Shown one piece after another: positions 23,736-30,928 of a stretch of DNA of 64,000 nucleotides (position 1 is the stretch's first letter; the number at the start of each line of letters is the position of its first letter). The notes under the pieces were generated by a model that ran no database searches, was not told where the DNA came from, and saw only the letters and a program-made list of their open reading frames with translations. The translations under genes and the position numbers were made by a program. Source of the stretch: Alphaproteobacteria bacterium (GTDB taxonomy: Bacteria; Pseudomonadota; Alphaproteobacteria; UBA828); NCBI GenBank assembly GCA_965214705.1, contig CBDCCI010000001.1, positions 630,013-694,012 on the forward strand, written 5' to 3'.

Positions 23736-25336
23736 TCAACGGTGCGCTCCGAAGGCGCCGGCGATACCGCTGTCGCCATCCGTTGCACCGAAGGTGCCGG
23801 CAACACCCGTCGGATGCTCGCTCGGGTTGGCTCCGTTACCGAAGAACGCCGCGCCCCACTCTCCTTGCCACCGGGCATCCGACCCGCCTCCGGAGACCTC
23901 CCCCCTCCACACTGACCAGTCCGATATGAACGCTGTCTCGAAACGCAGCTCCGTCGGAATGGACGCCGCACCATTTGCGGGGACGAAGTCAAAAATCACA
24001 CCGTCCAATCTGCCATCGTCCATACTCGTCCCGAAGTCGGCCGTCAGTTCCACGTCAGCCTCGAAAGAGCCCACATCCGAGTCGTTCGACGATCCGCCCG
24101 TATAGTACATCCCGATTGCATCGCCGACGTATATGGCGGTGCCGGTTAGCCTCTGCATGTGAGCCGGTTCGAACGGATCTCCGCCACCGGCAAGGACGCC
24201 GAAGTCGACCGGATCGAAGCTCGTAGCATCGTCCGGCAAATAGAGCCAGTATCCGAGGCTCAGATAATCGGCGGTCGGTACTTCGGCAGAAAAGGTCGGA
24301 CGAAGTACTACTTCGTCACTGCCTGAGGCGGCAGGCGTGAACACGACATTGCCACCGTATGGATAATAGTACCCTTTCGGCTGGGCGAGTTCGAGCCAGC
24401 ACGGTGATCCGCTGTCGCATGTGAACGTCCCCGATATGCCGTCCAACGTCCCGTCCAAGCCGTCGTCCGGTATCCGAACGCCTTGCCAGTCGTGACCCGG
24501 AAGAAGGTCTGGAATGTCGGCCAGAACGATGGTTCGGTCCGTCTCGCCGTAGCCAACCCAGGGTGCGCCCAATGTGTCGGAGTCGTCCGCATCGGTCGCG
24601 AGAGTGACTTCAAGCGTGCCGCCACTGATGTACTCTTTCCTTCCCTGGAATACCTGCCAGCCATCCCCCAGACCGTGAACTCCGGCTATTTCAGACGTCG
24701 TGATGCTCCGTCCTTGCCAATCCACGAGCGGATCAGACGGCAGAGCCGCGCTTGTGTGCGAAGTCAGGAATTCCAGGGCATTTGCGTCGTTGCGGTAAGG
24801 AATGGCATTAGCGTACCGCAACGGCGAGGTCTGCACGACAATCGAGTGCCCGGAGCCGGAGATAGGGCTCTCAATACGCCAAATGTTGGTGTGGCCATCC
24901 GCCACACTGACGACCTCGGCTATGGCGTCCGCGGCGGAGGGCTCCTGCCGATCATCGCTTGCTCCGAACGCACCCGTGATGCCGTCGCGGTCGAAGACGC
25001 CGCCGACCTCCTGGTGCAACGGACCGTAGAACATGCCGCTGATCGTGGGATCCACTCCGTCGTTGAAGGCCCCGTTCGTAAGGGAAAGATCGTTCCAGAG
25101 CATGTCGGGGCGTGCGGTCCCCGCCGCCACATCATGGATGCCGGTGAACGAGACATCGATGTCGGGCTCGGAAAGATCGTCTACGTCGACCGTGGCGTCG
25201 CCGAGGATCAGGCGGGTGGTTCCGGGCTCGTAGCGCGTCACATCCAAGCCGACCATGACGCCTGTCCATGTGGCGGAGCCCAGGCCAGTCGGGTTCGTGC
25301 CCGTGTATCGGCCAAACGATACGCCGTCGGTGCTAA
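23736..25336 (-). pseudogene. giant zincin/TbpB-like lipoprotein gene, 3' segment (track ORF 23736-25256 plus upstream open frame)
   Basis: Two TbpB/fHbp-type barrel signatures are present: MFYGPLHQEVGGVFDRDGITGAFGA and [38 protein letters not shown]. The frame stays open upstream of the Met to the IS boundary and joins in frame to 27705. Confidence 0.75.
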
Positions 25337-25371
25337 GTGTCCGGCCCGAAATGAATTGAGTGATTTCAGTG

Positions 25372-25556
25372 TGTTATGCTTCACTGGTTGTGTCCAAACA
25401 ATCAGCGAGGCACAAGATGTGGACTGAAATCACTCGACCGAAGTATGACCGCACGGGGCTGCGTTACGCAAGCGATGGAGTGGACGCCCCTCCCGGCGGC
25501 ATCGCGATGTGCCATGTTGGCGGTGGTGTTAACGCCAAGAGAGGAAAGGGGCGTCC
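25372..25556 (+). ncRNA. candidate IS110 left-end non-coding (bridge-RNA-like) region
   Basis: It is a 185-bp non-coding stretch upstream of the IS110 recombinase gene. It contains ACTGAAATCACTC (25423-25435), the perfect complement of GAGTGATTTCAGT (25358-25370). No covariance evidence is available. Confidence 0.3.
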
Positions 25557-27704: not shown

Positions 27705-30555
27705 GGCTGGACGACGCCGGCAACATGCTTTCATCGCAGGAAGTAACACTTGGTCCCCTACATTGGAGGTGCTCTTGTACAATAAAGCTACTGTACTCAG
27801 AATGCCCAACGTATACCTCGAAGCTGTCCCAGTTATCATCGTCAATACTATAGATAGAATCACCTTTGAATTGGGACATATTTACGCCGTTGTGTTCCAA
27901 TATGGGCTTGACGGTGTAACCCTCCGGCAAGGAGTCAAGCGTCAGCCAATTCGTAGACCTAGGTTCCTGATCTATGGGCTGGCCTAATGGCTTCCATTCT
28001 CCGGTGTCCACCTGGTAATGACGGCCTTCAACCTCATGGGTGGTTTGCCGTGCCGTTCTGTTATAGAGGTTAAGGACTTGACCCTCCGACAGATCGAGCG
28101 TCGGGTTGCCGTCAGCGAAGCTCTGCCACTTCTCCAATAGCGGTGTCTCGGTGCCGCTGCCGTCGTCCGGCATTGGAAGGCGGGCTCCGAAGCTGCCTGT
28201 GATTTCCGCCGCGTTGTGGTGGAACGTGCCCGCGGCTTCCTCGTGGCCGGAGCCGAGAAAGGCTCCGTTTAGAATTCCAGCGGCGCCGTCCTCGAAGGTC
28301 CCGTCGGCCTGTGTCCGAAGATCCTCGAAGCCGAAGTCGGGTAGGGCACGCCGGCCGTCACGGCTCGCGACTTCCGAAAACGCCACGTCCACGAGACTGG
28401 TGGGGAGGTGGAAGTCGACAGTGGTGCGCCCCTCGACGAATGGATTATCGAGGGGATCGTGGCTGTACTGGTATCCCAGCATCGGGCCGGACCACTGCGC
28501 GCTTTCGTCCGGAAGGCGGCCCGCCACCGTCCCCTGGACGCCGGTCCACACCTCGAAGAGACCTGCAGGTGTGCCGAGCGTGTCGGTCCACGCATCGCTG
28601 TACTTCTGAAAACCCGTCCCGAACGCGCCGTGCTCCATCGTCCCCATGTAACCATCGACGACATGGCGTCCCTGGCGGCCGTCGGTGGACGCAGCCGACT
28701 GCCGTTCGATCCGCACTAAGCCGATATCCTCGACGAGTCTCGCCGTATCTCTCCCGTCCCATCCGGCCGTTGACGCGAGCACGTCATCGCGCGTCGTCGC
28801 GGTCCAGTCGTTCCATTGACCCGCAGAAGCATTTCGCATCTCGCACGAGGATCCGGTGTCGCACCGATACCGGTGCCAGCCGTTGTCGACAGGATCCGCC
28901 GCTCCAATCCGATGGGACAAGCCCGCCAGGTGGTCGGCGGTGGCGATCGCCTCCTCGCGGCGGGGCCGGTCGTCGTGCGTAGCGCCAAAGCTCGCGAGCA
29001 GTCCGGCGCGAGGGTCGTGAAGCGTTCCCGCGACCTCCTCATGCTCCGGTCCGTAGAAATTCGCCGAGAGCGTCGAATTCTCGTCCGTTCCGACAATGGC
29101 GTTCTCCGTGAGCGCGAACGGGTAGTATAGAGCGCCGTCGGCAAATGCCTCGGGGTCTCCATCGGAATAGACCGCGAGCGAGGTGAAACTCGCGGTGCCG
29201 TCCAGGGTGCCGAGATCGACCGCCAGGTTGGCGTCTCCGGTGACCGGCGGCATCCAGTCGTAATCGATTGCCGCCCCGATCAAGCCACCCGCATAGCAGA
29301 CCTTCCCGAACGAGTCCTCCAGCGGGTAGGACATGCCGAAGTCCCCGGTGCTTCGGTAGCCGAATGCGTCGGCGCCCACCTGCAGAAGATCGGTTACCTC
29401 GAGGGCATGCCAGCGATTGGCTGCGCCATCGTAGTGCGGTTGCGGGTCGGCCAGGTCAATCTGAAGATCGCGGGATACGCTGAGCGTGAAACCGGCATGG
29501 TCTGTCCAGCCCGCGAGCCCGTAGGTCTCGGGCCGCCCGCTCTCCTCCGTCACGGTCATGCCGAGATCCGCGAGGAACGCGAAGTCGACGGCATGCGGCA
29601 GAAATGGCCGCAACGCCGCGTCCTGACTGCAGTACGCCATGACGGAGGCGCAGACGCCGCTGTGGCCGAAATCATATACGGTCGCCTCGGGGTCCCGCTC
29701 GCCCTCGACCCAGGCATGTGTGTCGGAGGCGTCCTGGAAAGGCGCGGGGCCGCCATGGAGGGCAACGACGTTGGGTCCCGTCCGGGTGCCGGATTCCGTG
29801 TCGGTGTAGGGTGTGTGGGGCACCGGCTCCGTGTGACCCCACCATGCGCCCAGCACATGCCCGATCTCGTGGGTGAGCGTTGCGAACAATCCGGCCTCGC
29901 CGGCCTCGTGCAGATATCCTCTGTCGATCGCCACCGATCCGAAATGGGGTTCCCAATCGCCGGGCGGCTGAATCCCCGGAATCGCCGAGCCGGCCACACG
30001 CAGGTCATTGTCCCGGACAGCGATCTCAAGCCCGGTGCTGACCTCGCCTCCGGCCCCGACGTAAACCTGAACAGGGGGACCGGGATAGTTGTTCAACCAG
30101 CCCTTGAGTTCGCCTTGTTCCCGCTCCCACGTGGACCATGTGTCGGCAATCCGGCGGCTCCAGGCCTTGCCGGCGCGTTCGAGCATGGCACGGAACGCCG
30201 GATCGTCTTTCATCGACGGCCCGGCGCTCGAGAGGTCGAATGCGATCGAGAGCGTGTCGGCCGGTCCGCCTGTCCAGCGTCCATAGGTCACACCATGGCG
30301 GGTCCCAAGTACCCGAACCTCGTCGCCATCCTGAAGATCCGGGGCCGCCGGTGCGTCGTCGGAACTCCGAGCCGCCGCTTTGAGCGCCGTAAGGTCGGCC
30401 GCATCGGCGTCCGATGCTGACGTGCTCAGCGAAAGACCATCCGCGATGCTCCGAGTGCGCCGGTGCCCCCAATGATCGAGCAGGTCAGCCGCGGTCAGGT
30501 TGTTGCGGGGACGCTCGGCCAGACGCACACTGCCCGGGCGGGTCAGTTCGGGTGC
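27705..30555 (-). pseudogene. giant zincin/TbpB-like lipoprotein gene, central segment (track ORF 27676-30528)
   Basis: It carries the zincin motif TLTHEIGHVLGAWWGH and two barrel signatures, ANFYGPEHEEVAGTLHDPRAGLLASFGA and GAFLGSGHEEAAGTFHHNAAEITGSFGA. The last 9 codons of the track ORF are IS-derived. Confidence 0.75.
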
Positions 30556-30564
30556 GGGGGGGGG
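30556..30564. repeat. G9 (coding-strand C9) homopolymer at a frame switch
   Basis: Nine G on the + strand separate the lipobox ORF frame from the 950-aa ORF frame. Losing one base would fuse the two frames. Confidence 0.9.
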
Positions 30565-30928
30565 ACGAGAAAAGAGTGTCTACCCCGGAGCGACCGCTTG
30601 AATCGGCTGGCTCGAAAGCCATGCCCACGTCGCTCGCTACGCCGTTCGTATCCGCCGTCGTTGCCGTTCCAGACGGAGCACCGCTTGTCACAACTGTGGA
30701 ATCGCCGGACGACTGTGCGCCGCTCTCCGTCTCCGTTGAAGGGAGCCCCCGCATGTCGGCGCTGGGTTGTTCGCCCGCGATGATGGTTTCACTGCCAACA
30801 GATTCCGGGCGCTCCCAGCTCGTCACGGGTCGATCCGTGCCGGATCCCTGGCAGGCCGCGAGCGAGAGTGAGGCAACTGCCATGACAGGAAGGGGAGAGA
30901 GTCGCAAGGCGGGATTCGCGCGCACCAT
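30565..30928 (-). pseudogene. giant lipoprotein gene, 5' segment with signal peptide and lipobox
   Basis: MVRANPALRLSPLPVMAVASLSLAAC (lipobox LAAC) is followed by a low-complexity S/T/G linker. The track ORF 30485-30928 stops 70 nt after the C-tract. Confidence 0.7.

Follow-up and report, generated by a model that had tools for sequence, protein, structure and literature searches.

The 64,000-nucleotide (nt) stretch of the alphaproteobacterial contig CBDCCI010000001.1 analyzed here (the window) carries on its minus strand a disrupted gene that we read as a single pseudogene for a very large outer-membrane lipoprotein, related to TbpB and of the kind that is brought to the cell surface by Slam. 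We put the probability of this reading at about three in four. At present the gene consists of three open reading frame (ORF) pieces, which are parted by a pair of nested insertion sequences (ISs) and by one surplus base in a C9 tract. In the intact order of the restored protein of 1,607 amino acids (aa), a signal peptide with a lipobox (Cys26) leads over a disordered tether of ~165 residues to a metzincin-like domain, behind which lie a TbpB-like bilobe, a third handle-barrel, and a fourth handle-barrel module. Positions of all features are collected in Table 1; homologous proteins and related loci are cited by P and L numbers, respectively.

Three reading frames of one gene

On the ORF list of the window, the minus strand from 30928 down to 23736 holds three pieces of a single gene, a 147-aa lipobox ORF beginning with MVRANPALRLSPLPVMAVASLSLAAC, a 950-aa ORF, and a 506-aa ORF. 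A ribosome-binding-like GAGGAA lies directly 5′ of the ATG. The first break coincides with the C9 tract, which is the sole long homopolymer of the gene region. The 950-aa frame is open from ~30580, about 20 nt upstream of this tract, and the lipobox frame ends at 30485; when one C is deleted, the two fuse and read ...LFSSPPAPELTRPGSVRLAERP... across the tract. The second break is repaired by excision of the insert and one TAA, which gives ...SSSL/STDGVSFGRY... in frame (the slash marks the junction); the sequence of the uninterrupted allele across the insertion site is then ...CCAGCCTTAGCACCGAC.... Both repairs together yield the 1,607-aa frame with one stop, the terminal one, and the 532 codons downstream of the IS contain no frame break.

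The chance of an in-frame join alone is one in three, and the alignments of homologues were therefore taken as the test. Two homologues, P0010 (69% identity) and P0015, are colinear with the restored protein from residue 1–7 to residue 939 and thus cross the C9 tract, which falls at about residue 123. In about 30 homologues of ~1,100 aa, the final 160–200 residues form a terminal barrel that aligns with query residues ~1022–1203 and straddles the IS junction after residue 1075. Because both breaks interrupt what is conserved, uninterrupted protein in the homologues, the three ORFs belong to a single gene. The initial annotation had proposed this gene from the in-frame join across the insert and from the C9 tract as the only separation between the lipobox ORF and the 950-aa frame. 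Both proposals are borne out, and the hallmarks of the IS and the homologue alignments across both breaks now agree with them. The same is true of its description of the product as a lipoprotein, as the signal peptide ends in an L-A-A-C lipobox, the counterpart of which, an LxLxAC column, is kept in 57 homologues.

The 2,365-bp insert consists of two elements, an IS5-family element and an IS110-family element nested in it. The outer one has the features of known IS5-type elements, namely a DDE transposase (NF033580, 253.8 bits, cut-off 110), terminal inverted repeats, and a short target duplication, here the 3-bp TAA. Its transposase gene is split by the inner element into an N-terminal part, MWTEITRPKYDRTGLRYASD at 25417–25476, and a remainder from ~26911 to 27672. 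The inner element encodes a DEDD transposase typical of the IS110 family (NF033542, 323.6 bits, cut-off 140; PF02371, 87.1 bits; PF01548, 54 bits) and has sub-terminal inverted repeats, GTGGACGCCCC and GGGGCGTCCAC; like known IS110 elements it has such repeats and lies inside another IS. The transposases of both elements are well over the curated cut-offs.

The lipoprotein gene is inactive in this genome because of the IS insertion. The IS5-family element with its nested IS110-family element splits barrel 3, and the extra C in the C9 tract breaks the frame after the tether. For annotation this means that what may be listed as three genes and two transposase genes is one dead gene with nested ISs.

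TbpB-like modules and the C-terminal quarter

The joined protein contains four FYG/FLG...FGA signatures, from which the initial annotation had deduced four TbpB-type barrels. A profile search and a structural model now support them. PF01298 (TbpB_B_D) matches the restored protein in four stretches with a total of 50.8 bits (cut-off 26), and each of the four barrel segments matches it when searched alone (E from 3.5e-4 to 2.5e-3), barrel 4 covering profile positions 4–126. AlphaFold2 models cover a 942-aa piece and a 286-aa protease crop. The former has a predicted local distance difference test score (pLDDT) of 80–95 over residues ~380–786, and a Foldseek search of it (barrels 1 and 2) against PDB gives full-length bilobed TbpB and LbpB as the top matches (E ~1e-13); hemophilin, NHBA, and the TbpB C-lobe come next. 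Barrels 1 and 2 with their two handles are thus predicted to form a TbpB-like bilobe, after which the third and fourth barrels follow. The GC content drops to 0.53–0.54 at 27500–28250, against ~0.65 around; the stretch encodes the third handle region (residues ~893–1075), which is without close homologues, and may be a recombined cassette.

The restored protein has more than 239 homologues, mostly of ~1,100 aa, with others of 1,400–2,572 aa. None has a functional name, four being labelled "hypothetical protein" and the rest nameless. Related loci occur in metagenome-assembled genomes (MAGs) of Alphaproteobacteria, Binatia, Nitrospinota, Tectimicrobiota, and Pseudomonadales, and the known relatives come from uncultured bacteria only. 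At least three of the carriers are sponge symbionts: the MAGs with L007, L012, and L026 are of sponge origin, RHO1_bin_79, CAR1_bin_3, and an SB0662 bin being given as sponge-derived in the supplement of PMC8163846. The longest homologues, P0001–P0008 (1,577–2,572 aa; for example L007 758–6667, L008 9602–14728, and L002 9995–14731), have a core unit of ~800 residues (query 117–916, the protease plus the bilobe) in tandem. The second core unit is full in P0001–P0005, whereas P0006–P0008 have a partial first copy without the protease segment. Extension at the C-terminus by additional handle-barrel modules is common in the family, and two proteins of ~1,600 aa, P0057 and P0059, also have four barrels. 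In the literature we found no paper on a Slam-type lipoprotein with a metzincin domain, nor one on DUF560, type XI, or PF01298 in sponges. The architecture had been suggested to be undescribed; this holds in that the homologues are unnamed and no paper was found, but it is not rare, given the number of homologues in MAGs of several phyla.

The C-terminal quarter, residues 1204–1607, has a family of its own. All of its 64 homologues are at most 674 aa long, and the full-length ones (~460–670 aa) mostly start with their own signal peptide, lipobox, and Gly/Asp-rich linker. Members of this C-module family were found 14 times as separate neighbor genes in the fetched loci. The last 404 residues, which account for most of the 506-aa ORF, thus seem to occur elsewhere only as stand-alone lipoproteins, so that the fusion would be unique to this gene. 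In the JGI metagenomes, a search for the barrel-3/C-module fusion gave eight loci, all with barrel 3 only and at most 55% identity, and a codon-degenerate pattern for the uninterrupted allele spanning the IS junction gave no match. When the C-terminal extensions of ten long homologues were compared with the C-module family by BLASTP, there was no match either, so the extra modules of these homologues are of different kinds.

An alternative explanation is that the 1,607-aa frame has never been functional and is a chimera, in which a zincin lipoprotein of ~1,200 aa ending at barrel 3 and an adjacent, separate lipoprotein gene of ~500 aa were joined by a deletion in a decaying, IS-ridden locus. 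The small size of the C-module homologues, their own signal peptides and lipoboxes, and the 14 cases in which the zincin and C-module families are separate neighbors all agree with such an origin. So does the observation that the ~1,100-aa relatives and a 348-aa ORF in L028 end directly behind the barrel-3-type domain, and that the four-module fusion was found nowhere else among the homologue matches, the JGI metagenomes, and the long-homologue extensions. The junction is clean, however: barrel 3 is complete through GAFGAS, and the homology to the best C-module homologue, P0121 (57%), begins about 8 linker residues further on, where the linker of P0121 ends. The intact frame downstream of the IS and the frequency of C-terminal handle-barrel extension in the family also speak against a chimera, which we consider unlikely. 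We clearly prefer a genuine Rosetta-stone fusion, joining two families with a functional link, over an in-frame deletion that arose by chance in a decaying locus, because the junction lies exactly at a domain boundary and because four-barrel proteins of ~1,600 aa recur. The initial annotation had named independent 950- and 506-aa genes in other genomes as the result that would contradict a single gene. For the last 404 residues, independent genes do exist in other genomes, but not here, where the frame is continuous with barrel 3. The fusion, together with the frequent gene neighborhood, is an argument for joint action of the zincin lipoprotein and the smaller lipoprotein family.

The neighborhood of the family was surveyed in 77 ORFs of 27 related loci (L001, L002, and 25 from a genome scan). 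PF04575 (Slam/DUF560) is the Pfam family that occurs most often in these ORFs, and TonB-receptor families are not among the families seen at least twice. Six Slam genes (66.8–88.5 bits, cut-off 22) lie within 10 kb in five of the 25 scanned loci. In three of these loci, the genes follow each other on the same strand in an operon-like order: (i) Slam (1363–2808), small lipoprotein (2872–4446), zincin gene (4610–7405) in L012; (ii) small lipoprotein, Slam, Slam, zincin gene in L018; and (iii) zincin gene, small lipoprotein, Slam in L006. A Slam gene adjoins a stand-alone C-module-family gene in all five loci, and the second Slam gene of L018 also abuts the zincin gene. The Slam genes of L006 (16444–17823) and L018 (6593–8089 and 8215–9579, in tandem) belong to Candidatus Binatia MAGs; in publications, Slam/DUF560 is described as proteobacterial.

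Several copies of the family adjoin conjugation or integration genes. The three closest homologues (67–69% identity; L001 1776–4727, L003 3451–9006, and L004 3740–9214) are located directly downstream of a gene for a TrwC-type relaxase, and L001 also has a type IV secretion system coupling protein. Judged from these neighbors, the copies in L001, L003, and L004 appear to be carried on conjugative elements.

The putative protease domain and comparison with Slam cargo

The domain between the tether and the bilobe was aligned in two sets, one of 27 domains (26 from related loci plus the window), ranging from 73% down to 34% identity, and one of 108 sequences (107 homologues plus the window). H353, E354, G356, H357, and G360 are invariant in both alignments, and the Ile of HEIGH varies. 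Further downstream, H422, G424, C426, S428, M430, Y432, and C433 are invariant in the 27 aligned domains. For the CxSxMxYC motif, 8 residues after H422, invariance of the Met was seen in the 27-sequence alignment (A5) and that of the other five in both alignments; pLDDT is below 60 there. The metzincin consensus HExxHxxGxxH/D is not followed, since position +3 after the Gly is occupied by W or is variable. The trailing His of HEIGHVLGAWWGH was rejected as the third zinc ligand, as its position is not conserved. H422, the next invariant His, is the likely third ligand; it lies 62 residues past G360 and 65 past the second His of HEIGH. In leishmanolysin, an insert of 62 residues separates Gly271 from His334 (PMC9321319).

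A profile search against PDB sequences returned mostly metzincins, all of them weak matches (MMP-10 with E = 0.0024, astacin-family proteins, and leishmanolysin with E = 0.11). Sub-threshold Pfam matches were seen for M10 in 20, Reprolysin_4 in 9, and M8 in 7 of the 27 members (best E for M8, 0.015), and for none of these three families in the window copy. In the model of the protease crop, the N-terminal sub-domain, a β-sheet with the HEIGH helix, has a pLDDT of 75–92, and Foldseek of the cropped domain gives leishmanolysin (1lml) first (E = 0.019, probability 0.96), then snapalysin. By exhaustive phmmer, the domain is found in only 165 representative clusters of 1.84 billion proteins, some of the proteins being only ~430–600 aa long.

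Our reading of these weak matches, at the level of the clan only, is that the domain belongs to the metzincins and has a leishmanolysin-like layout but lies outside every curated family. With leishmanolysin (GP63, family M8) and other metzincins (matrix metalloproteinases, astacins, snapalysin) it shares HExxHxxG on a predicted active-site helix that follows a β-sheet, and a downstream Met in SxMxY. With leishmanolysin, its best fold match, it also shares the gap of ~62 residues before the next invariant His. It differs from metzincins in that it has no significant sequence similarity to M8 or to any other Pfam peptidase family, carries two invariant Cys around the Met-turn-like motif, and is fused to TbpB-like lobes. 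It resembles leishmanolysin in layout but is not a member of family M8. The zincin predicted in the initial annotation was right in kind, with an invariant HExxHxxG and the profile and fold matches described, but weak; it is not backed by a Pfam threshold, and the last His of the predicted motif is not a conserved one.

It could also be argued that the HExxH domain is no protease at all, but a degenerate or ligand-binding metzincin-like fold in a purely binding or receptor lipoprotein such as TbpB, fHbp, or hemophilin. The canonical third-ligand position held by W or other residues, the low confidence at which half of the domain is modelled, and the lack of a match above any peptidase-family threshold would fit this explanation, and the characterized Slam cargo in PMC5449769 and PMC8406197 consists of binding proteins throughout. 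On the other hand, the Glu, both His, the Gly, the downstream His, and SxMxY are invariant from 73% to 34% identity, which is the pattern expected of a working active site, and leishmanolysin shows that a protease can be active with an insert of 62 residues in front of the third His (PMC9321319). We regard a non-catalytic domain as distinctly unlikely and retain the putative zinc protease.

Three features have been used to define Slam cargo, namely a lipobox, a handle with an 8-stranded barrel, and a neighboring Slam gene (PMC5449769; PMC8406197). The restored protein shares with Slam-dependent lipoproteins (TbpB, LbpB, HpuA, fHbp, NHBA, hemophilin/HphA, and PmSLP) the N-terminal lipobox, the PF01298 modules of handle and 8-stranded barrel, and the barrel at the C-terminus. 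Its bilobed core superposes on TbpB and LbpB, and Slam genes are linked to its relatives as they are to these proteins (PMC5449769). It is, however, 2–3 times longer than Slam cargo, with four barrels rather than one or two, and it contains a metzincin-like domain, whereas no enzyme domain is present in published Slam cargo (PMC5449769; PMC8406197). Its relatives were found only in uncultured bacteria, among them at least three from sponges, and not in animal pathogens. Unlike for TbpB and LbpB, no gene for a paired TonB-dependent receptor (TbpA or LbpA) is present among the large ORFs of the window. The protein is not a TbpB, because its score stays below the NCBIfam equivalog cut-off and a receptor partner is lacking; it is probably a divergent representative of the Slam-type surface lipoproteins that resemble TbpB.

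Several results weigh against this reading. The score for slam_lipo (NF041636) is 42.7 bits and does not reach the cut-off of 80 (best stretch, residues 1460–1606). As had been noted initially, no Slam or TonB-dependent receptor is encoded in the 64-kb window, either by Pfam among its ~30 large ORFs or, for Slam, by tblastn with six Slam proteins. In the related loci, the link of Slam to the zincin protein itself is indirect, because the Slam gene always lies beside the small lipoprotein gene. No Pfam peptidase family, M8 (PF01457) included, reaches its gathering threshold; the C-terminal half of the protease-crop model has a pLDDT below 50; all fold matches of the crop have E above 0.001 and a TM score of at most 0.29; and residue conservation is what points to catalysis and to the third zinc ligand. 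Finally, the four-module fusion, having been found nowhere else, may never have worked.

For intact relatives, the following sequence of events may be envisaged. The protein would be lipidated and then transported to the outer membrane, where a Slam (DUF560, type XI) translocon would flip it to the cell surface. There the barrel and handle lobes would capture a protein ligand, and the tethered putative zinc protease would cleave it. Translocation by Slam is described as involving an unfolded state and a C-terminal specificity motif (PMC9090332).

We tentatively suggest that intact members may constitute an undescribed class of Slam/type XI cargo: surface-tethered leishmanolysin-like zinc proteases that would capture the substrate by their own TbpB-like lobes, appear to be shuffled as modules (tandem units up to 2,572 aa, fusion with a partner), and appear to be borne on conjugative or integrative elements. 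Slam-dependent surface lipoproteins are known mainly from animal pathogens, in which they act as receptors and in immune evasion; some of them serve as vaccine antigens. If the suggestion is true, the repertoire of the Slam route would be extended from binding to catalysis, and the targets that members of the family bind and cleave would be proteins of a host or of prey. Carriage on conjugative or integrative elements may then account for the presence of the family in several bacterial phyla. Sponge symbiosis is among the oldest animal-microbe symbioses, and the family would provide a candidate effector of symbiont-host interaction in sponges. The interest lies mainly in the family; the copy in the window is a pseudogene.

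The C9 tract, the IS110 element, and the surroundings of the gene

The lesion at the C9 tract may reflect either a true frameshift or a sequencing error in the homopolymer. A third reading, that the tract is an on/off switch of phase variation, is the least likely of the three and very improbable: although it falls in the tether-coding region, where a change of length is tolerated, a tract of this sort is missing near the 5′ end in all 23 homologous genes inspected, G/C runs of at least 9 are expected by chance at 65% GC (~3.5 in 64 kb, with 2 seen), and the gene is in any case dead through the IS. The neisserial hpuA, a gene for a Slam-dependent lipoprotein, is phase-variable via a poly-G tract. 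Elsewhere in the window, a G12 homopolymer is located at 19350–19361, near the 3′ end of a gene for a family-4 glycosyltransferase (19314–20549, minus strand); an error or variation in its length would shift the frame there.

Table 1. Features of the disrupted lipoprotein gene and its insertion sequences (positions in the window; residues of the restored protein)
Feature	Position	Strand	Details
Whole disrupted lipoprotein gene	23736–30928	−	Restored product 1,607 aa; stop codon 23736–23738
Lipobox ORF	30485–30928	−	147 aa; starts MVRANPALRLSPLPVMAVASLSLAAC
950-aa ORF	27676–30528	−	
506-aa ORF	23736–25256	−	
Signal peptide and lipobox	30851–30928	−	Residues 1–26; ...SLSLAAC, Cys26
C9 homopolymer (G9 on plus strand)	30556–30564	−	One surplus base; separates lipobox ORF from 950-aa frame
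Metzincin-like (leishmanolysin-like) putative Zn-protease domain	29494–30351	−	Residues 193–478
HEIGH	29857–29871	−	Residues 353–357, within HEIGHVLGAWWGH (joined residues 353–365)
HSGVCASVMAYC	29629–29664	−	Residues 422–433; invariant His (candidate third Zn ligand) and SxMxY Met-turn-like motif between two invariant Cys
Barrel 1	28975–29307	−	Residues 541–651; end FYGPEHEEVAGTL...ASFGA
Barrel 2	28180–28557	−	Residues 791–916; end FLGSGHEEAAGTF...GSFGA
Third handle/barrel module, N-terminal part	27703–27864	−	Residues 1022–1075; severed by IS
Barrel 3, C-terminal part	24951–25334	−	Residues 1076–1203; end FYGPLHQEVGGVF...GAFGA
C-terminal handle and barrel 4 module	23739–24950	−	Residues 1204–1607; barrel 4 ~23739–24182
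IS5-family element	25337–27701	+	11-bp perfect inverted repeats GTGTCCGGCCC / GGGCCGGACAC; TAA duplication 25334–25336 and 27702–27704
Nested IS110-family element	25477–26910	+	Ends accurate within a few bases; transposase 25557–26579
Barrel-3-like fragment in IS110 3′ non-coding region	26699–26761	−	90% identical to 25184–25252

Related copies of the IS110 element are present in loci L002 and L004. The copy in the window differs from them by an extra segment of ~56 nt from a lipoprotein barrel gene in its 3′ non-coding region. This barrel-3-like fragment (~56–63 nt) has the gene's own orientation and forms an insertion between flanks that are conserved with the IS110 of L004 and L002; it is too long for a bridge-RNA guide. 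An Rfam scan of 23000–31500 gave no match, and the IS110 3′ region is not explained by known RNA families, including bridge RNAs.

At its 3′ end, the lipoprotein gene abuts a truncated gene for an NAD-dependent epimerase (23276–23520, plus strand). On the other side, directly upstream of the start of the lipoprotein gene, the C-terminal remnant of a tyrosine recombinase gene (31141–31374, minus strand) lies beside an IS4-type element (31604–33550). The lipoprotein gene looks like the cargo of a degraded integrative element in a polysaccharide-synthesis locus. The recombinase remnant, the truncated epimerase gene, and the relaxase-linked relatives suggest carriage on mobile elements.

Five near-identical elements of ~2.6 kb are found in the window, at ~4880–7570, 13940–16630, 16610–19300, 36760–39450, and 59550–62240, two of them adjacent. 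Each contains an ORF for a tyrosine recombinase and one for an IS91-type (Y2_Tnp) transposase. A 42-nt palindrome (AAGGGTTGGGCAGGCTCTC...) occurs ~2.6 kb downstream of the start of each repeat, apparently at one end of every copy. Reverse-transcriptase/maturase ORFs of group II introns are located at 39464–40774 (minus strand) and 58621–59586 (plus strand), the second without a match to the maturase domain. With these introns and the IS66, IS4-type, and IS91-type elements, the window is mostly mobile DNA.

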